A DNA stretch of 64,000 nt from NCBI GenBank assembly GCA_004431415.1, contig QPMI01000568.1, forward strand, positions 1-64,000, written 5' to 3'. Shown here in pieces: positions 12,715-63,752 of this stretch. Positions within the stretch are counted from its first letter, which is position 1. Each line of letters starts with the position of its first letter. The DNA is from Cyanophora paradoxa CCMP329 (Eukaryota > Plantae > Glaucophyta). Under the pieces are notes generated by a model that ran no database searches, was not told the origin of the DNA, and saw only the letters and a program-made list of their open reading frames with translations. The translations under genes were made by a program, and so were the position numbers.

Positions 12715-13116
12715 ATGAATACTCATCGAGGCTTCCATGTGATGCTGGATTACAAGTTCAGAACCCAATTAGCAGTAGGAATGGAAAACTTGGAGACAAC
12801 AACCAGGTGGTTAATGCAGTTCTTGCAAACTATTATTCAAGAGCAAGGTATTCGAGTAGTTCACAAGCATTGCGAGATTTTCGATGGTGGTATTTCTCCT
12901 CCTGGTTTTGCAATGGTTCTTCTGCTGGATGAGAGCCACTGCACTGCTCATTGTTACTCAAATGAAGGTATGCTGGCGATTGATATATTCAGTTGTGGAT
13001 TAGAAGCAGAGAGAAAAACCACGAGAGTATCTCATGAGATAGATGAGAGAATAACAGGTGTGTTTTCAGGGTTGGAGAAATCGGAGAAACATAGAGTATT
13101 GCGATTTCCGAGTTAG
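12715..13116 (+). CDS. speD: S-adenosylmethionine decarboxylase proenzyme (bacterial class 1B-like)
   Basis: G.H...D at the N-terminus; GFAMVLLLDESHCTAHCY...LAIDIFSCG with the E/S-H pyruvoyl self-cleavage site. Confidence 0.85.
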   Translation: MNTHRGFHVMLDYKFRTQLAVGMENLETTTRWLMQFLQTIIQEQGIRVVHKHCEIFDGGISPPGFAMVLLLDESHCTAHCYSNEGMLAIDIFSCGLEAERKTTRVSHEIDERITGVFSGLEKSEKHRVLRFPS

Positions 13117-13184: not shown

Positions 13185-13612
13185 TATTTAATTGACTGTG
13201 ACGCCTCTTTAATTGACTGTGACGCCTGTGACGCCTGTGACGCCTACTTTCAAACTTTTTAAAATTTTCAAAAATTACAGACTTCTGAAAACAGCCGTCA
13301 CAGCCGTCACAGGCGTCACACCCAATTAACAATGGAATCTCTTTCTCTTACTGAGATTTTCGAAAATATATTCTTGTCTTACTGAAATCCGTCTTGTGAC
13401 ACCTCTGACACCTACAAAACACTATCCATTAATCAACCTTTTTGAAAATGCGAAGTTGTCTTACTGGAAATGGTCTGCAATTTCGCTGTGACACCTAATT
13501 TAATTGAGTGTGACGCCTGTGACGCCTGTGACACCTACTTTCAAACTTTTTAAAATTTTCAAAAATGACAGACTTCTGAAAACAGGCGTCACAGCCGTCA
13601 CAGGCGTCACAG
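13185..13612. repeat. Two duplicated blocks of inverted 9-mer iterons (TGTGACGCC)n ... (GCCGTCACA)n around an AT-rich core
   Basis: Blocks at about 13185-13321 and 13487-13611 share CTACTTTCAAACTTTTTAAAATTTTCAAAAAT. Confidence 0.85.
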
Positions 13613-14304: not shown

Positions 14305-14399
14305 ACACATATGTATAAACTTATTTAAATCCTGAGTGAATCGAGATCGCGAAGCGATCGAGATGAACGAGGGATTTAAATAAGTTTATACATATGTGT
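14305..14399 (+). other. Terminal fold-back hairpin of element B
   Basis: 28-bp perfect arms (14305-14332 / 14372-14399) enclosing an inner stem with three tandem G.A mismatches and a GCGAAGC apex. Confidence 0.9.
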
Positions 14400-17300
14400 G
14401 CTGTAAATTGGGGTAGCAGTATGGCGGAAGGGGAAGCCCCAGTTGCTCCTGCGCTGCGAAAATGCGGTGCATGATATACGGGAGAAGCAGGGGGTGGTTC
14501 GTGCGGATGGTTTCATCGAGCACGTGAATGGCCAGCTGTTCGTCCTCCGTTCTCTTGAGGCCGTAGAAGCCTCGGCTCCACATGAGCGCGTTGGGCGTGG
14601 ACCCCCTAAGGCGGGCATGATGTTTAGTGAGCGTCATCCAGAGAGTGTCGAGCTGGGCACATTGTCTCTCGGTAAAGGAAACAATCTTGCAGGCGTAAGT
14701 GATGCGAGGGAGAAGGACGCTATTTACTATGTATATCGTCTCTTTGGCGGTGAGTTTCTTACGCCTTAGTATCGCGCAGGCTGCCCGAGCTGTTGAGTAT
14801 ACAGCCTCAAATTGCCGCCGCCAGTCCAGATTTGCTGTCATCCAGACCCCGAGCACCTTGAATGGTTTGTTCGGCGCAAGGACTTTGTCGGCCGGTTCTT
14901 TAGCATCGGGCGGGCCTAGTAGCGGGGCAGACGGGCGTGGGGAGACGTTGTTGTACGTAAATTCGGTTTTCTTCGCGTTGAGGGCAATATCATGTATCCA
15001 GAAGAATTCAGAGGCCAGGTCTGCGTGCAGCTGGATGCCCCGGGCTGTACCGCTAATAAGTACGGTGTCGTCTGCGTATGCTTGCCCCGGCGAGGTCACC
15101 CGAGGCAGGCGCGCTCGCAGGCGTCGGGTGGGCGCGGGCAGGTTAGCGTCAGACGCAGAGGGCGGCGGGCCCATGGAGTATTGGGTGCTCTCCGCAGCGC
15201 TGACTTCGCGTAAAGCCGATAGAAATACGTCATAGAAGATGAGCCAGTGAATTGGGGACTCGGTTCCTCCTTGCGGGAGCCCGCACTCCACATCGAAGGG
15301 GTCAGTTGGGCCGTACCCTGTCGCGACGGACGCTGTACGTGATGTTGATATTTGTCCGTAGAGGCTTATGTACCGTTCGGGAATTTTTAGGCGGCGGAGT
15401 GCCATTTCCATGCTAGACCAGCTGACGCTGTCGTAGGCTCTGCGAATATCTAGCAGTAGCAGATAGATCGGTTTCGAGAATTGTTTTGCGTCCTCCAGTA
15501 GCGCGCGCAGCATGTACAGAGGCTCGTCGGTGGACTTGCCTCGAGTAAAGGCGAAGTTCGCGCCCTGTAATATGTCGTGTTTGCGGAGAACGCGCGAGAG
15601 GCGGTCAGTGAGGACTGCCGTCACGAGTTTCAGCGTGCATTCTTGGAGTGTAATGGGGCGGACATTGTCAGGGTGCCCATCCCATTCCCCGCCCTTGGGG
15701 ATAAGACATATATTTCCGTGAAGAAGGGGCGCAGGGACAGACGAGAGTTTTAGGATCAGATTTACCGTAGTGAGGATTACCTGGCGGCACGTCGGGAACA
15801 GGTTATCGGGTTCTTGGAGCGGCTCCGGGTCCAGGCCCGCCTTGCGTAGTTCTTCGCAAGTTTTCTTTGAAAGGACCGGTGCCGTCCACAGCATTTTTAT
15901 CATTTCGTGGGAAAATCCCGAGGGCCCCGCCGCACCGTTTCGGAGAGAGCCGATGATTCGGTCCAGTTCGGCCTCGCTGGTGGGTTCCATTAGGTACACA
16001 TAAATTGCATCATCAATATCCTGGCGCGGGGAGTGAAGTCGGCGCCATATTGAGGCCTCCTGTGCACATGTACTAAGTGGCAGCGCGCCCGGGTCCCTGT
16101 TCGCTGTGAGTGGGCTACGCTGCCGTGTCCAGGCATGCATGTGATGGCGTGCGAACTGTTTCACTGCATCTTCATTGCCGTATACCTGATATTCTCCAGC
16201 GTGGCAGAGGGAGAAGGAGGTAATCGGCCTGCGTTCTGGGGCTTCAAGTGTTTGGCGGAGGTATTGGGCGAGGTCTGTCTTGAACATGCGCTGCGAGCGC
16301 TCTCGGTTTGCTCTGATTGTCGTGGCTTCGAAACGTTTAATGTGGGCCTGGACTTTGGTGTCCAGGGCCGAGGCCCAAGTGGTGAAGCTTGGAAAATAGT
16401 CGAGCCAGCTTGGTTGTCGGGCAGAGAATGGCGGCGGCACAGGGGGTAGTGGGAGTTTAAGATAGCCTGACCGCTTGTCTATTGGGAGTTTGTCAAGCCG
16501 GCGGTTGTGATTTGAGATTGCCCTGCGCAGGTCAGAGAGGGAGTGCCGTACGCGGCGCGGCGTGGAGTCGATCCCGTGGCGCGCCGCTTCCCATGCCTTG
16601 CGCAGTTCCTGGGCCCTCGTGAGCAGGTTGGATTCGGGGCGGCCGCGGCGGGAGAATTTTTGAGGGATTTTTGGGGGCGTAAAGATGCCAAATACTGGCG
16701 ATTGGCCGAGGTCACAGATGTGGGCGAGAGTGGATTTGAGGGCTTCGTGCAGGCGGGCTAGGCGGTCCTCTGGCGGGGTGCCGTCGTCGTCCTCCAGCGT
16801 TGCGAGTAGCTCTCGTACGCTAGCTGAGGACCCCGGCACCGGCTGCTGTAGCTTTTCTTCCAGTAGTTCTTTGAAGCGAATTTTTGTGAGCGATGCCTGT
16901 GTCGCGTACTTGAAACGCGGGGGGCCGGGCGAAGACGCTGGGGGCCCCAGTTTATATTTGATGGCCAGGGCCCGTTTACTGTACTCTGCAAGGAGTGGGA
17001 AATGGTCCGAGGGGAAAGGGGCGTTTCTAGGCGACGCTTGGGCCGCTCGAAGGGCGTTAGTCGCGACTTGGGATTGTAAGATGTAGTCGAGCCTGGTAGC
17101 ATGGCGGAGCGTGCCATCTGGGGCGATGCCTCGAGGGTTGGGGTTGTCAGGAGCGTCAGGAAATATGAAGGTGATTTGGTCGTCGGTGCCCATGGCTGTG
17201 GCAGCGTCGGAGAGGGTCCAGTCGTGAAGCAGTTCATGCCACCAGCGGTGATCAGGTTCTCGTGTGGTCGCATATTGCCCCTGTCTGATTTTGCCCGTCT

Positions 17301-17920
17301 CGGGACAGAGGCAGCTGTTAAGATCGCCAAGGAGGAAAAAGTGCGCGCGGGGGCGGAGCGCCCAGTCAGCGTACATGGTCGCGCGGAGATAGTCGAAGAT
17401 TTTCGCACTTTCAGTAGACCGCGCCGTCCGACTTTCGCCGGGGGGAGGTACACGCTGGCGATAAAGATCTGAACATTATTTGCAAATCGAAGCTCACAGC
17501 CGGCCACGCGGCCTGGCATTGTGTAGGTCTTAAAACAGTGCTTGGCCATATTTTCTGAGAGAAAAAGGGCTACGCCGGAGCCGCGGGGGAGGCTCGATTT
17601 TGGCGGAGTTTCTTCTGCGAGAGGGGCGGGGTGGGCGGGGCTCGAGCTGGGAGCTCCTGAGCACTAGTTGTGCGCGTGGCCGAGTCGGCGTGCACGGACG
17701 TGAGCATGAGCCCCGATGTCACTGACCTGCGCATCGCTCTGACCGTAGCCTGGGTGCAGTTAAGTGATTGGACCCCTAATACGCTCAGCCCCCAGTCAAG
17801 CATATATTTCTGGATCTGGCCGACATGGTTGACGCTAGAGCAGGTGCGGGCGTTCCAGGTCGCGAGTCTCCAGTACTGGTCAGAGTCAAAGCGGCGGCGT
17901 ATGATACCCGATTTTCGGTG
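14400..17920 (-). mobile_element. Non-LTR retrotransposon (LINE) ORF2: APE endonuclease + reverse transcriptase; 3'-truncated, frameshifted at the 5' end
   Basis: APE motifs LATWNART, FIASVYLPP, LLGDLNS, TRLDYI, SDHFPL; RT motifs RPITL, LLDIRRAYDSV, GLPQGGTESP, AYADD, FKVLG. The 5' boundary is uncertain and may extend to about 18.9 kb. Confidence 0.9.
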
Positions 17921-26872: not shown

Positions 26873-29800
26873 ATGCACGGCGCGCACGCCTACGGGATGG
26901 GGCTCGTGCAGGGCGCCGGCGGCGAGGATTTCACGATTCTGGAATCTGCGCCGCAGCCGCCAAGCGCAGCCGCCGGAGAACAGTCCGCGATCATCGAAGT
27001 CGAGCGGGAGGCGCTTCGCCCGTCGCCCTCGTCCGAGCTGGCGGCCGTCGGCCGGTGAGATCGATATCGGGCCCTGGCTCGCGCTCGCGCCGTGCGATCT
27101 TGCGATCGCCTCAAGCTCATCCGTTCGCAGGTCGGAAAAGGCAGCCAAGGATGCCGGCGAGCACACGGCCGCGGCGGAGCGAGCTCGCGCTCGGCGCTCC
27201 CAGATCCATCCACTCCTCAGCGCCGCGGCTCTAGATCTGGACCTGGACGTCGAAAACGACGCCGACGCGGGCGACCTCGATGCCAAGCCGATTCCAGGCA
27301 TCACGCACGGTCGCCGATCCTGGATCGTTCGCTTCCTCCGCTCCCTCGGGTCAGCGCGCGCGCGCGCGCGCGCCTGCTCGCGGCTAGCGCTAGCGCCGCC
27401 GGCTTACCTCCCGCGGCCGCCGGGTCGCCGCTGCTTGCGCAGGCCCGGGTTTGTCGTATCCGTCGGCTACATGGATCCCGGCAACTGGGCGACGGACCTC
27501 GCCGCGGGATCCGTGCGCGCCCCTTCGCGCCGCGAACCGGCACCCCGAGTCCCTGACCGCGCGGCCGGCATACCGCTTACCGCCCCGCCGCTAGACCTTC
27601 GGGTACATGCATCTCTTCGTCATCCTGCTCTCCTCCCTCGCCGCCATGTTCCTCCAGTCCCTCGCCGTGCGCCATACCCCCGCCCCGCTGCATGCACGCG
27701 TACCCCGGGCGATCGCGAGACGGCGCGGGCGTGCGCAGGTGCGGCTGGCGGTGGCGACGGGGCGGAACCTGGCAGAGATGTGCCGCACCGAGTACCGGCC
27801 CGCCGTCTCCGCCGTCCTCTACCTCCTCTGCGAGGCCGCCATCGTCGTGCGCCCGCACGCGTACCCCGATCGGAATCGCCCCCCCTCCACCGCTGATTCC
27901 CCTCTTCGCGAACAGGCGTGCGACCTGGCGGAGGTCATCGGGGGGGCGATCGCCCTGAACCTGCTCGGCGGCGTACCCCTCCCCGGCGGCGTCGCGATCA
28001 CGGGTCTGTCCCGGCCTGTACCCCCACGGGAGGCTCCGGATCGAAATCGCTGATTCCCCGTACCCCAGCGGGGTCCACGTTCCTCGTCCTGTTCGGCTTC
28101 CAGGGGCCCAACGGCCGCCGCTTCCTCGAGGTTCCCCCCCCCCCCCCCCACCCCCCCCCTCCCCTCTCCCTCTCCACCTCCCCCCCTCTCCCTCTCCCGC
28201 CCCGCCGACCACCGCCCCTCTTTCCCCGGACCCCCTTTCCCTTTCACCCAGATCAGCACGGCGTGCTTCGTGGCTACGGTCGGCATCGGCTTCGCGGTGC
28301 TCATCGGGTACACGAATCCCGACCCCGGGGACACCCTCCGCGGTGCGCGGCGCAGTACCTCGCCTGAGGGCACCCCCCCCCTGAGGCGGGGGCAGGGTAC
28401 GTGCCGTCGGGGACGCTGGTGACGAACTCGGAGGCGCTGTTCCTCGGGATCGGCATCCTCGGGGCCACCGTCATGCCCCACAACCGTCCGCCCCCGCGCC
28501 CCCGCGCTCTCGCCGCCCCCGCCCTCCCTGGGCCTAGGCCAAGGCTGGCGCCATGCCTGGCACATTATTAGCCCTCGAGGCTCGATCTATTGCAGTTGCA
28601 AGTGTTGCGTGCAGTGTGAGGACCCGGGATGATTCGGGGAATCACTAGCCTCTCGCGAGATGGCCTATTGGTAGAACTGCCGCCTTGACACCCCTTAGTC
28701 GTTGGTTCGACTCCGGCGGGTCGCAACGCGTCCATAACACAAGCTATCTCACCGCCGACAGCAAGCGTGACCTCCGCGCGGGGCGGGGCGCAGTGTACCT
28801 GCACTCGGCGATCGTGGGCCCGCCGGGGCCGTCCTCGCGGGAGACGCCGCGCTCGGCGCTGCGGCTGCTCACCGCCGAGTCCTCCTTCGCGCTGACCGCC
28901 GCCTTCTTCGTCAACTGCGCCATCCTCATCGTCTCCGCCGCCGCCTTCCACGCCACCGGCCACCAGGAGGCACGCCCCGGCCCCGCCCCTCAAGCTTGCA
29001 TTCAAGAGTTTATTATATGACCTTAATTTGCGCCTTCGATGCCGCCTCCGCGGCCGATTCCCCCCCCCCCCCCCCCCCCCCCCACGACCCCCCCGCGTGG
29101 TCGTGGGGGGCGCTGAGGGGCGCGGGGCGGGGCGCAGGTGGCGGAGCTGCGGGACGCGTACGGGCTGCTGGCGGAGCTCGTCGGGCGCTCCTCCGGCACC
29201 ATCTTCGCCGTCGCCCTCCTCGCCTCCGTCCGCACCCGCCCCCGCCCCCCGCCCCGTCATCCTCGCCGCCCTCTCTTTGAAATTTGAGATTTTACCCCCC
29301 CCCCTCCCCCCTCTCCCCCGCCCCGCCCCTGACTCGCCGTCGCCGTTCGCAGGGCCTCTCGGCGACAATAACGGCGACGACGGCGGGGCAGGTGCCGTCC
29401 CTCCCGCCCCGCGACGACAGCCGGGGGGGCGTTGCACGCCCCTCCCGGTCTGGGCTGATTTCGCGCTCGCGGCGGCGCCTCGCAGATCGTCTGCGAGGGC
29501 TTCCTGCGCCTCCGGGTCCGCCCCTGGGTGCGCCCATGGCCCGCCTCGCCCCGCTCCCGCGCCGCCCCGCGCCCGCTCCGTGCCTCGCCGGCCGTGCCGC
29601 CGACGGGCTCGGACGGGGGCAGGTGCGGGCGGCGCTCACGCGGGGCCTGGCGATCGTGCCCGCGATGGCCGTCGCCTGCACCGCCGGCGAGACCGGCCTC
29701 GGCCGCCTCCTCGTCCTCTCCCAGGTCCATCCTCCTCGTTCGCATCCGATCCTCACAGACGGCGCCCTCTGACTCGCAGCTCGCGCCGTGCGGCCGCAGG

Positions 29801-30787: not shown

Positions 30788-31212
30788 CGGAATCCGGAAA
30801 GTAATCATTGTAGAAAGCTATTGTAATAAAAAAGGTAAATTACCCTGATCACCATAATAGAAACCCATCAAAACGGGAATCTATCATGTTTATGTCTCTC
30901 AGTCTTCTCAAATGTTAAGAAATTCATTGTTTTATCGATCTCATCTGCTACTGATTGTGTTTTATGCTGAGCTTCTTTACCACAACTGAATATATCAATT
31001 GCTAACATGCCTTCATTGGAATAACAATGAGCTGTACAATGGCTTTCATCTAATAGCAGAACCAAAGCAAAACCAGGAGGTGATATTTTGCCATCAAATA
31101 TCTCACAATGCTTATGAACAATCCTAATACCTTGTCTCAATACTGCTTGTTCAAGGGTTCCCATAATCCAATTACCTAGGAAGCTAACATGCTCATAACC
31201 TGTTGCTATAGC

Positions 31213-33379
31213 GAGGGGAGAGGGGGGTACGGAAAATTTACGGTAGCGCGACGATTACGGCGGCGCAGCGGGCCAGGTTTCCCACCCGTGGGTTCCTGAT
31301 AACGCTGCGTGTCAAGCTGCTCGGAAAGTCGCGCGCCAGCTCCACCCGACCCCCGTAGCCAGAACGCGCTAGATAGACCAGCCGGGCGTGCACGGACAGC
31401 CGACACGAGCACATCATCACCAATCGCAACCGCCGAAGTCGGTAGCCCGCCCCGGAGCGCCAGGCAGCCCCGCCAACCTCGCCGCGTCATCTTTTTTGAA
31501 TTCCACGGACCCCGGACCCCACCTGCGCCCTGCGCGGAGCGCAAAGCAATCGCCCTGCCTCTCCCGATAGACGATAAGAGCTCTTAAGCAACTGAACTGC
31601 CGCCCAGTCCCGCGCATTGCGCCCCGATGCTGACACTCACTCACTGCCTGTCACACCGCAGACATGAGCCGATCATCCACGGACGACACACCGGATGTCG
31701 CCGCCATGCCCGGCGAACGACGTAGACCGTGCTTGCGCGACGCTCGCCGGCGCCCAGGCCCCGCGGGCCCACGCCCCGCCCCCTTTCCCCGGACTGGGCC
31801 CAAAGGGCGCCCACCTGGACTCCTCCCCCCCGAGGCCGGTACAGAAGCGTGTACGCTCGGACCCCCTGCCCCCCGTCCGCAGTCCGAGCCAGACGAGGCC
31901 CGCCCGGACCCGGCCTTCAAGCCGGCCCCTGCCCTCCCGCTTCAGCGCCCCGCCCCCGCCCTCCGGCTCCAGCGCCCGCCCCGCCCTCCGCTCCAGCGCC
32001 CCGCCCCCGCCCTCCGGCTCCAGCGCCCCGCCCCGCCCCCAGCTCCAGCGCCCCGCCCCCGCCCCAGCTCCAGCGCCCCGCCCCCGCCCCCAGCTCCAGC
32101 GCCCCGCCCCGCCCTCCGCTCCAGCGCCCCGCCCCGCCCCCAGCTCCAGCGCCCCGCCCCCGCCCCCAGCTCCAGCGCCCCGCCCCGCCCTCCGGCTCCA
32201 GCGCCCCGCCCCGCCCTCCGGCTCCAGCGCCCCGCCCCGCCCTCCGGCTCCAGCGCCCCGCCCCCGCCCTCCGGCTCCAGCGCCCGCCCCCGCCCTCCGG
32301 CTCCAGCGCCCCGCCCCCGCCCCCAGCTCCAGCGCCCCGCCCCCGCCCCCAGCTCCAGCGCCCCGCCCCCGCCCTCCGGCTCCAGCGCCCCGCCCCCGCC
32401 CTCCGGCTCCAGCGCCCCGCCCCCGCCCCCAGCTCCAGCGCCCCGCCCCGCCCCCAGCTCCAGCGCCCCGCCCCCGCCCTCCGGCTCCAGCGCCCGCCCC
32501 CGCCCCCAGCTCCAGCGCCCCGCCCCCGCCCCCCAGCTCCAGCGCCCCGCCCCCGCCCTCCGGCTCCAGCGCCCCGCCCCCGCCCCCAGCTCCAGCGCCC
32601 CGCCCCGCCCTCCGGCTCCAGCGCCCCGCCCCCGCCACCCCTCTAAGTGCCCCGCCGCCCTAGCGCCCCGCCGCTCCCTCGCGCCCTTCCCCGTCGCCCC
32701 CAGCGCCCCGCCGCCCCCCCAGTGCCCTTCCCACGTCACCCCTCTCAGCGCCCCGCCGCCCTAGTGCCCCGCTGCTCCCCCGTGCCCTTCCCCCGTCGCC
32801 CCCGGCGCCCCTCCGCCCCCCAGCGCCCTTCCGCCGCCGCTTCCCCAGGGCCCCGCCCCCAGTGCTCCTCCACCCCTTAGCCCCCCGCCCTTTGCCCCGG
32901 CCCCCAGCGCCCCGCCCCCGCCGCCCCCAGCGCCCCGCCCCCGCCGCCCTCTAGCGCCCTGCCCCGACCCTCGGCGCCCCGCCCCGCTCCCGGCCCGTCA
33001 CCCTCCCGCCCGCCCCGCCCCGCCCGCCCCCAGCTCCCCGACCCCAGCGCCTCACCCCCGCCACCCTCCAGCGCTCCGTGTACCCCACTCCCTGCCCTTC
33101 TCCCCCTCCCTACGCCTCGCCCCCGCCGACCCCCAGCACCCCGTGCGCCTCGCCTCCCCCTCCCCCCTCTCTTCCACAGGGCCAAGGACACCAACGCATC
33201 AGGCCCTCCTAAAGCTGTAGATCGATAGCTCACAGCTAGGATAAGATAGCAGGACGTCTTCCTTCTATGCCGCAGAGCATTTGCGCTAGCCTAGGCGCCC
33301 CCCCGGTCGACGTCACCGACGGGGCGGCGGTTGTTGTCCTTAATACGAACATTGCCCGGTTGGGCTTTTGCAAAAAAAA
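31213..33379 (+). mobile_element. Non-autonomous non-LTR retroposon (SINE-like) with GC-rich tandem repeats
   Basis: 16-bp TSD AACCTGTTGCTATAGC (31197-31212, 33380-33395), A-tail, 3' stem-loop GCCC-GGTT-GGGC, no credible ORF. Confidence 0.9.
31920..32640. repeat. GC-rich tandem repeat, ~23-29-bp units with core CTCCAGCGCCCCGCCCC
   Basis: Direct tandem repetition. Confidence 0.9.
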
Positions 33380-33472
33380 AACCTGTTGCTATAGCTGATT
33401 TAGCCTTGTAATCAAGCATAACATGAAAGCCTCTGTATTTAGTCTCCATTAAGAATACCTTAGAAAAATTAA

Positions 33473-62110: not shown

Positions 62111-62114
62111 GACA

Positions 62115-62225
62115 TTACACATAAATAAAAACAAATTTTAATCCCTCGCTCTATCGCTCAATTCGCGCTTCGCGCTCATTTCGCTCTGTCGCTCAGGATT
62201 AAAATTTGTTTTTATTTATGTGTAA
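62115..62225 (-). other. Terminal fold-back hairpin of element D
   Basis: 30-bp perfect arms (62115-62144 / 62196-62225); on the minus strand the inner stem has five tandem G.A mismatches and a GCGAAGC apex. Confidence 0.9.
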
Positions 62226-62588
62226 ATTAATCGAAAATATTTAAAAAATAAATCAAAAATTTTAATAAAATCAATTAAATTTAAATAAATTCGATTAAAT
62301 TAATTGGTATAATATCAATTAAATTATGATTTTATAAAAATTATATAAATTTTTGATAAATTACGTATTTCTCGATTGATTTATTGATATAAACGCGATT
62401 AATTTGTATTAAAATGAAAAATACGTATTTTTCGATTGATATAAACGCGATTAATATGTATTTTATGCAAATTCGATATAATCTCGATTGAAGGAACATA
62501 AATTTATGATATAATCACGATTGATATAATCACGATTGAAGTAGTCCACCGCCCATTCTATCGGAAAACGCAAAAATTCACACAGAGT

Positions 62589-62949
62589 TGCATTATGTCC
62601 AATTAAACAATCGATGAGATTGCGGCGTATTTTGTTGGATTAGATGGCTACTGCATTATGTCCAATTAAACAATCGATGAGATATCGGTTGAAAATAATT
62701 CACTCGTTACTGCATTATGTCCAATTAAACAATCGTTGAGATTGCGGCGTATTTTGTTGGAAGGGATGGTTACTGCATTATGTCCAATTAAACAATCGAT
62801 GAGATTGCGGTTCGATTTTTACTGTATCAAAAATGACCCCAGAGTTGCATTATGTCCAATTAAACAATCGATGAGATTGCGGTTCGATTTTTACTGTATC
62901 AAAAATGACCCCAGAGTTGCATTATGTCCAATTAAACAATCGATGAGAT
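62589..62949. repeat. Six copies of 32-bp TGCATTATGTCCAATTAAACAATCGATGAGAT with 27-40-bp inter-related spacers
   Basis: Copies at 62589, 62652, 62711, 62774, 62846 and 62918. Confidence 0.9.
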
Positions 62950-63021
62950 TGGATTCTGTTTTTTACTGTATCAAAATTGTGTTTCAAGTGTAACACGTCC
63001 AATTAATCAATCGATAATCAA

Positions 63022-63302
63022 TGTGTAACAGGTGAATCCCAACGTGTAACAGGTGAATCCCAAGGTGTAACGGATGAATCCCAAGGTGTAACGGGTGAAT
63101 CCCAAGGTGTAACGGATGAATCCCAAGGTGTAACGGATGAATCCCAACGTGTAACAGTTGAATCCCAAGGTGTAACGGATGAATCCCAACGTGTAACAGG
63201 TGAATCCCAAGGTGTAACGGGTGTAACAGGTAAATCCCAAAGTTTTGGGTTTTTGGCCTCCCTAGGAGCGAAGTTTGGGATTTACCTGTTACACCTGTTA
63301 CA
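63022..63302. repeat. About ten 21-bp units GTGTAAC(A/G)G(G/A)TGAATCCCAA(C/G), followed by inverted CCTGTTACA x2
   Basis: Direct inspection. Confidence 0.85.
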
Positions 63303-63353
63303 CATGACGATATTCAATAATACATGTTATATTTCTTCAAAATCTCAGTGTGA

Positions 63354-63752
63354 TTAACTCGGAAATCGCGCTGCTATCTGCTTCTCCGCTTTCTCCAACC
63401 CTGAAAAGATCTCTGTTATTCTCTCATCTATCAATTTAGATATTACGGAGGTCTTACTTTGCGCTTCTGTTCCGCAAGTGAATACATCAATCGCTAACAT
63501 TCCTTGATCCGAATAACAATGAGCGGTTAAATGGCTCTCATCGAGAAGTAATACCATCGCAAAACCCGGTGGCGAAACACCACCATCGAAAATCTCGCAA
63601 TGCTTGTGAACAACTCGGATACCTTGTTCTTGAATAATAGATTGAAAAAATTGCATTAACCACTTCGTTGTGGTGTCTATGTTGTCCAATCCCACCATCA
63701 ATGGATGATTGAACTTGTAATCTAACATAACATGGAAACCGCGATGATTCAT
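63354..63752 (-). CDS. speD: S-adenosylmethionine decarboxylase proenzyme
   Basis: GFAMVLLLDESHLTAHCY...LAIDVFTCG; intact. Confidence 0.85.
   Translation of the reverse strand: MNHRGFHVMLDYKFNHPLMVGLDNIDTTTKWLMQFFQSIIQEQGIRVVHKHCEIFDGGVSPPGFAMVLLLDESHLTAHCYSDQGMLAIDVFTCGTEAQSKTSVISKLIDERITEIFSGLEKAEKQIAARFPS

Follow-up and report, generated by a model that had tools for sequence, protein, structure and literature searches.

A G·A hairpin terminus of an integrated Polinton-like virus in Cyanophora paradoxa, a candidate self-priming structure

The window analysed here, the whole 64,000-nt stretch at positions 1–64,000 of contig QPMI01000568.1 (Cyanophora paradoxa CCMP329), is a GC-rich, intron-dense eukaryotic region with three related AT-rich elements, denoted B, C and D (Table 1). 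B extends to position 14399 and D begins at 62117; the far end of D, together with its polymerase, integrase, capsid and ATPase region, lies beyond the window. In all three elements the gene nearest one end encodes S-adenosylmethionine decarboxylase (12715–13116 in B, 30926–31134 in C, Table 1 for D). The host frame that crosses the B junction terminates 14 nt into the B hairpin.

Table 1. Position of the elements, hairpin parts and neighbouring features in the window.
Feature	Position	Strand	Remarks
Homologous hairpin end of element B	14305–14399	+	Arms 14305–14332 and 14372–14399; apex 14349–14355
Host LINE-type reverse-transcriptase frame crossing the B junction	14386–17376	-	Pfam RVT_1, E 1.7e-21
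Element C, related virus	30370–58256		Terminal inverted repeat of ~420 bp
6-bp target site GACATT, duplication at far D end inferred	62111–62116	+	X1 loose end before 62117 is the reverse complement of the hexamer
Outer 28-bp arm of D	62117–62144	-	Element ends at base 62117, where the G·A strand has its 3' end
51-nt core of D	62145–62195	-	T·G, five tandem G·A steps, one C·A, 4-bp apex stem
GCGAAGC mini-hairpin apex of D	62167–62173	-	
Inner 28-bp arm of D	62196–62223	-	Perfectly complementary to the outer arm
AT-rich subterminal spacer of D	62224–62534		
Conserved block and 63/72-bp repeats common to the B end	62535–62976		Local matches of 69–98% identity
21-bp tandem repeats (9.8 copies) and 33-nt inverted repeat	63019–63303		
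S-adenosylmethionine decarboxylase gene, nearest to this D end	63354–63752	-	Pfam PF02675, E 1.3e-12; 79% to the B homologue

C, which shares structural and accessory genes with B, encodes an rve integrase (Pfam rve, E 3.3e-10), an A32 ATPase (Pox_A32, E 6.1e-14) and a Tlr1-like polymerase-helicase whose C-terminal domain is endonuclease VII-like (PHROG 1035, E 4.6e-10). Its capsid-like frame gave no match in one search and two relatives in another; the closest is a Cyanophora paradoxa protein (58% identical), a low-confidence model of which (pLDDT 39.6) matches viral capsid proteins, with Tetraselmis virus S1 at the top. The S-adenosylmethionine decarboxylase gene of C contains a GC-rich insert (31193–33396) with a 26-bp tandem array, an A-tract and a flanking 13-bp direct repeat, which is probably a host retroelement. 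The ends of C are non-palindromic, start with GTCGGTCGGT and have no visible target-site duplication. They serve as an internal control: neither carries a terminal G·A hairpin, and the hairpin is therefore not universal among such elements. The type of end may track the replication module.

Upstream in the B region lies a broken rve gene (550–1519, 36–39% to the C integrase), preceded by a frame (97–426) that we take to resemble the end of a protein-primed polymerase; repeated searches gave no confirmation of this identity. A repeat block at 2400–2790 (11-, 12- and 32-bp repeats, short palindromes) sits between the integrase and a patatin gene. It may mark a boundary between internal modules or the end of a further element, and may separate the 97–426 fragment and the broken rve gene from B. 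A stretch within an apparent host intron (28660–28730) is tRNA-like; ARAGORN, which found no tRNA, made no call there.

The hairpin on the minus strand at 62115–62225, the sequence of which we confirmed, forms a palindrome of 107 bases that terminates element D, an integrated Polinton-like virus. Read pair by pair from the base, 28 Watson–Crick pairs are followed by a T·G pair, GA/GA, 2 pairs, GA/GA, a C·A mismatch with 1 pair, GA/GA, 2 pairs, GA/GA, 3 pairs, the fifth GA/GA, 4 pairs and the GAA loop. This reading bears out the first-pass annotation, which had described five tandem G·A mismatches separated by 2–3-bp blocks, one of them with a C·A mismatch. The arms, put there at 30 bp, are 28 bp long because the element starts at 62117; the outer TT (62115–62116) is host target DNA that matches by chance. 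The outer arm is AT-rich (23 of 28 positions), and the duplex form of the core amounts to 2.9 copies of a direct repeat of period 18.

Sheared G·A pairs have been reported in a pyrimidine-GA-purine context, consecutive blocks of which fold stably (PMC10085684). Six of the eight tandems in B and D have this context on both strands (3/3 in B, 3/5 in D); the other two steps of D fall outside it. The apex corresponds to an extra-stable loop: a Tm of 76.5 C has been given for the GCGAAGC heptamer, and mini-hairpins of this type are reported to resist 3' exonuclease (PMC13037366). The cases described in the consulted parts of these sources come from a human promoter, from phage origins and from synthetic DNA (PMC10085684, PMC13037366), whereas here the motif lies at the end of a eukaryotic virus.

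Folded as DNA, the whole hairpins of D and B give z-scores of −9.9 and −13.8, and the arms account for both. The core folded alone gives z = 0.0 because ViennaRNA treats G·A steps as open loops, and the program did not tell the two strands of the core apart. When G·A is counted, 22 of 24 positions pair on the G·A strand versus 12 of 24 on the opposite strand; the D core pairing was reached by none of 200,000 shuffles on the former and by 69 of 200,000 on the latter. The prediction for the centre of D is closure in one of its strands and not in the other, via five tandem G·A pairs. Six Rfam matches to microRNA precursors, all far under the gathering score, were dismissed as generic hairpins.

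The end of B has a shorter core (39 nt, three tandem G·A steps) and 7 non-Watson–Crick positions, versus 12 in D; it pairs at 28 positions and at T·G, after which the three GA/GA steps alternate with blocks of 2, 3 and 6. As the first-pass annotation had noted, B and D have in common the CCTGAG/CGAGGG base with its T·G pair, the GCGAAGC apex and the ACACAT end, to which the 28-bp arm length can be added. D is not the ‘independent’ second copy it had been called: the two share the S-adenosylmethionine decarboxylase gene, the 72-bp repeats and the hairpin, and are therefore homologous ends of related elements. That they close off a single element was rejected, as their bodies are directed away from one another. 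The subterminal repeats (13209–13329, 13509–13611, 63212–63303) differ in sequence between B and D, and in each set inverted copies come after the last copies, giving extra hairpins ∼ 0.8–1.2 kb inside the end.

The arms had been said to differ from B at many positions yet to remain complementary, a pattern attributed either to selection on structure or to regeneration of one arm from the other. Complementarity holds throughout, with 6 of 6 changes compensated, but the changed positions number 6 of 28. Re-synthesis of one arm from the other would fit these compensated changes. It would not account for the core, since arm-from-arm copying turns GA into TC and therefore cannot make G·A/G·A steps. 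Here all eight two-by-two loops of B and D are GA/GA although the paired blocks and the core length differ, a comparison of sequences that supports selection on the core structure. Selection and regeneration therefore appear to concern separate parts of the hairpin, the core and the arms. It is very unlikely that the structure is a by-product, with arms from accidental fold-back repair and a core from slippage of a short GAGC-rich unit. The D core is indeed a direct repeat, a tandem repeat can mimic a G·A ladder in scoring (locus L072, below), and accidental annealing is named as an alternative for Halocafeteria (bioRxiv 10.64898/2026.07.28.741278); but B lacks such a repeat unit and yet maintains the exact register with different blocks, and both ends keep the same base, T·G pair and apex and an arm length of 28 bp.

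Further hairpins were sought with a scan that tolerated tandem G·A steps and read both strands. In the 64-kb window it returned exactly two, B (14305–14399, +) and D. Protein-led scans of viral contigs yielded 2 distant loci and 35 loci, 3 of these with long matches, and further scans of this kind yielded none; the G·A-tolerant scan found no hairpin in these 37 loci (548,189 bases), the ends of which may be incomplete. Hairpin motif scans of viral contigs gave no match. The virome scan proposed by the first-pass annotation has thus produced no additional viral copy. Among 65 bacterial-type loci (272,252 bases) there were 8 matches in 2 loci, one a REP-like palindrome and the other a tandem repeat, and the metagenome and GTDB scans returned only REP-like bacterial palindromes. 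Such palindromes (L038–L102) have the stem base and apex of B and D, with Acidobacteriota, Rhodopseudomonas and Nitrobacter among the named matches. The fold of L066:1490–1540 has this apex along with a T·G pair and two tandem G·A steps, and L072:2804–2928, on a bacterial-type contig, is a 14-bp tandem repeat for which self-pairing through G·A steps is possible.

The likeness to CGTC-tagged bacterial REPs extends to a shared stem base of 16 nt and often to the apex as well (PMC3733652), and base and apex motifs occur at 49 metagenome and 16 bacterial genome loci, although the search pattern was derived from B and D and the match is partly by design. One might accordingly read the hairpin base as an HUH nuclease recognition site, as in bacterial REP elements, whose enzymes read one strand and require stem mismatches (PMC8266576). 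We regard this as extremely unlikely. CGTC REPs carry a tetranucleotide tag (GTC or CTC at 48 of the 49 metagenome loci) and no long arms (0 of 49 loci with > 9 further pairs), whereas 5' of the stem B and D have paired AT-rich arms in place of an unpaired CGTC, TGTC or CCTC tag. No HUH domain or Rep/NS1 nickase was found in the 45 frames scanned, most of D lying beyond the window; the consulted part of one source knows of no transposase for CGTC REPs (PMC3733652); and the 6-bp duplication described below indicates a DDE integrase. The likeness is probably convergence.

The host junction was followed in sequencing runs. At least half of the sampled words occur in 19 of the 24 runs listed, none of which is listed as an RNA run. 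The evidence consists of Logan contigs, which omit rarer paths, from four runs on a wide stretch and two (X1, X12) on a narrow one. In all four runs, which may be one strain, contigs cross from the host flank into the arm by 28–30 element bases with zero differences, just short of the 31-base bridging threshold, and on this basis an assembly artefact was rejected. The host flank is unbranched up to the junction; no empty-site allele appears in the contigs of the four runs, though one may still exist. Core contigs begin at 62117 in both X1 and X12, which locates the exact junction that the first-pass annotation had left to be defined. They are 6.6 (X1) and 10.2 (X12) times deeper than the flank; depth does not equal copy number, but suggests several copies.

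A duplication of the target site, likewise sought in that annotation, can be read from one X1 contig (among 8 of 20 records), in which a different flank directly abuts 62117. The depth of this contig (∼ 110, by subtraction) matches that of the single flank (104.5). The final six bases of the new flank are the reverse complement of GACATT, and the duplication is exactly 6 bp, as 5 or 7 bp fail to fit (one contig in one of two runs). The match has an estimated chance of ∼ 1 in 4,096 per flank pair, three flanks being known. We infer that the contig is what the far end of D with a 6-bp duplication is expected to look like. It spans 62117–62146, the identical 30 terminal bases on the matching flank, and therefore indicates the same core polarity at the far end. 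A second flank on the same end with the GACATT duplication makes it very likely that D bears the hairpin at both ends, the G·A strand being the 3' one at each. Duplications of 6 bp are typical for rve integrases (PMC12220804).

Three ends are thus seen joined to the host (B, the near D end and the far-flank contig), and in all three the G·A strand is 3', in keeping with the earlier placement of the hairpin at the host junction on the 3' side of that strand. No flop (inverted) end occurs among these three junctions, in contigs that can lose rare forms. Poxviruses, which are not known to integrate, offer one comparison. Their flip-and-flop telomeres are likewise imperfect terminal hairpins in which structure matters over sequence, but occur in two complementary forms (PMC8956199), whereas a single polarity is seen in D and B. 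Parvovirus rolling-hairpin termini (AAV2 ITR, left end of MVM and LuIII) resemble D in their single-palindrome bridge and in the role of a GA mismatch (PMC11575299, PMC1185569). Unlike these, D belongs to a dsDNA virus that probably uses a DDE integrase; its hairpin has no branches, B and D show 3–5 regular G·A tandems, flip-flop is absent from 3/3 host junctions, and Rep/NS1 was not found in the window.

The X12 contigs (all 8 records) bear on how element bodies may be joined. Two 53-nt records differ at 62139. A 92-nt record (62140–62231) passes unbranched through the inner arm into the body, and a 38-nt record consists of two unaligned letters, the inner arm changed at the paired position 62201, and 8 body bases; an additional 51-nt record has the same clip as the 38-nt record and lies outside the simulated set. 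Six molecule sets were simulated with an edge-based de Bruijn graph and no graph cleaning. Only one of the six, a body-arm-core-arm-body junction, reproduces the X12 boundaries, with both the 92-nt and the 38-nt records. The boundaries of the simulated normal-polarity integrated, flop and mixed sets differ from X12, and in both flop models a break would fall at 62200 or 62223, where the 62140–62231 contig is unbroken. The contig coordinates of this single-core junction come from one run, with change positions deduced from record ends, and a distinct family whose core starts elsewhere could give rise to the appearance of the 38-nt record. No strand-change joint is listed in the Logan contigs of the runs compared.

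The single-core junction could equally be a head-to-tail array or a circle, which short contigs cannot separate from a head-to-head arrangement. The 28-bp arms could serve as direct repeats through which the two ends recombine, giving a one-core circle and then rolling-circle replication or tandem arrays, with the G·A hairpin as a single-strand origin. This would yield an identical junction, and the presence of an arm variant on one junction side only is consistent with two ends that differ slightly. In AAV, a junction of this kind links head-to-tail concatemers, always in the same orientation, and primase sites coincide with mini-hairpins (PMC11575299 and PMC13037366, respectively). We nevertheless judge recombination through the arms to be quite unlikely, given that the 64-kb window holds no solo hairpin footprint and that the constant 3' placement of the G·A strand would go unexplained.

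We give an even chance to the reading that the D hairpin is a one-strand self-priming structure, used for fold-back priming with fixed polarity. A single strand would fold through the GCGAAGC apex and the sheared G·A ladder, which would leave the terminal 3'-OH base-paired where the element body begins. A polymerase could extend this folded 3' end into a hairpin-closed duplex, the copying of which would give the body-arm-core-arm-body junction. A cut of the same strand at the arm/body boundary would release a 3'-OH, which the rve integrase would join to host DNA with a 6-nt stagger; the host would fill in the opposite strand, and the core would hence never be inverted. Trimming of the AT-rich outer arm and its re-extension on the inner arm would keep the arms identical, while the core, which would not be self-copyable, would be maintained by selection. 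Once integrated, the duplex core would be a direct repeat and a 51-nt spacer rather than a palindrome, and cruciform breakage would be spared. In yeast, Mre11 attack is confined to hairpins with loops under 9 nt (PMC8053094), for which reason an integrated copy with a 51-nt non-palindromic centre is plausibly safer.

Several observations favour self-priming. The 3' end at 62117 is flush-paired with the inner arm, so that the end has by geometry the form of a parvovirus-type 3'-terminal self-priming palindrome. Only the single-core model yields the 92-nt and 38-nt contigs of X12. The GA/GA loops with their mostly sheared-type context, the stable apex, the compensated arms and the unbranched 62140–62231 contig also speak for it, and hairpin priming has been proposed for the Halocafeteria elements too. 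Participation of an integrase is supported by the 6-bp duplication and by the rve genes in C and, broken, upstream in the B region. Counted against self-priming, the Logan contigs show no replication intermediate, no fold-back at the level of reads and no nick site, and the ends start with a reiterated AC-AC-A, a kind of terminus also suited to protein priming. The C·A mismatch and the two D steps outside the favoured context likewise weigh against it. Palindromes are, moreover, tied mainly to non-pPolB elements in the Halocafeteria preprint (10.64898/2026.07.28.741278).

Protein-primed replication from open ends is the alternative that we take most seriously, unlikely as we hold it to be; the hairpin would then cap the displaced 3' end or serve as a binding structure for a packaging protein or the integrase. 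Fixed polarity is expected here too, Polinton-type polymerases have terminal-protein domains (PMC11161782), the mismatches of the vaccinia hairpin serve packaging and not DNA synthesis (PMC8956199), and the exonuclease resistance of the mini-hairpin would suit a cap (PMC13037366). Protein priming alone, however, leaves the fully compensated arms and the single-core junction unexplained, and the flush, paired 3'-OH would presumably be a ready primer.

Terminal palindromes have already been reported in Polinton-like viruses, together with a proposal of hairpin priming. In endogenous virophages and Polinton-like viruses of Halocafeteria seosinensis, palindromes adjoin target-site duplications and hairpin priming has been proposed (bioRxiv 10.64898/2026.07.28.741278, July 2026). 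These elements resemble B and D in having a palindrome beside the target-site duplication and, probably, in its position within a terminal repeat and in an rve integrase. Unlike the present description, the preprint text, in the part available, makes no mention of a G·A ladder, its polarity or the form of the junction, although G·A steps may be present in its figure sequences; B and D exceed the limits of its screen (gap 10, 4 mismatches) and would escape it. A G·A ladder at the end of a Polinton-like virus was not found in the literature searched, which included the accessible parts of PMC11161782, 10.1101/2022.07.28.501842 and 10.64898/2026.10.13.758929, and neither was fixed polarity or a single-core junction; most subscription papers lie outside that literature. 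Our broader proposal for this viral lineage combines fold-back self-priming from a sheared-G·A zipper present on the 3' strand only, a core that is never inverted, and integration by hairpin opening. It would amount to a polarity-fixed rolling-hairpin cycle in which an rve integrase replaces the HUH nickase, and we advance it tentatively, as somewhat short of an even chance.

The D end is a real, conserved and probably multi-copy terminal structure of a Polinton-like virus. As a cis element of 107 nt, it offers a boundary known to the base, a probable target-site duplication and an asymmetry predicted between its strands, which makes the hairpin-priming model testable. The D and B ends would be a natural example of a long G·A ladder maintained by selection and, since such ends escape ordinary palindrome screens, they may be overlooked in other protist genomes.
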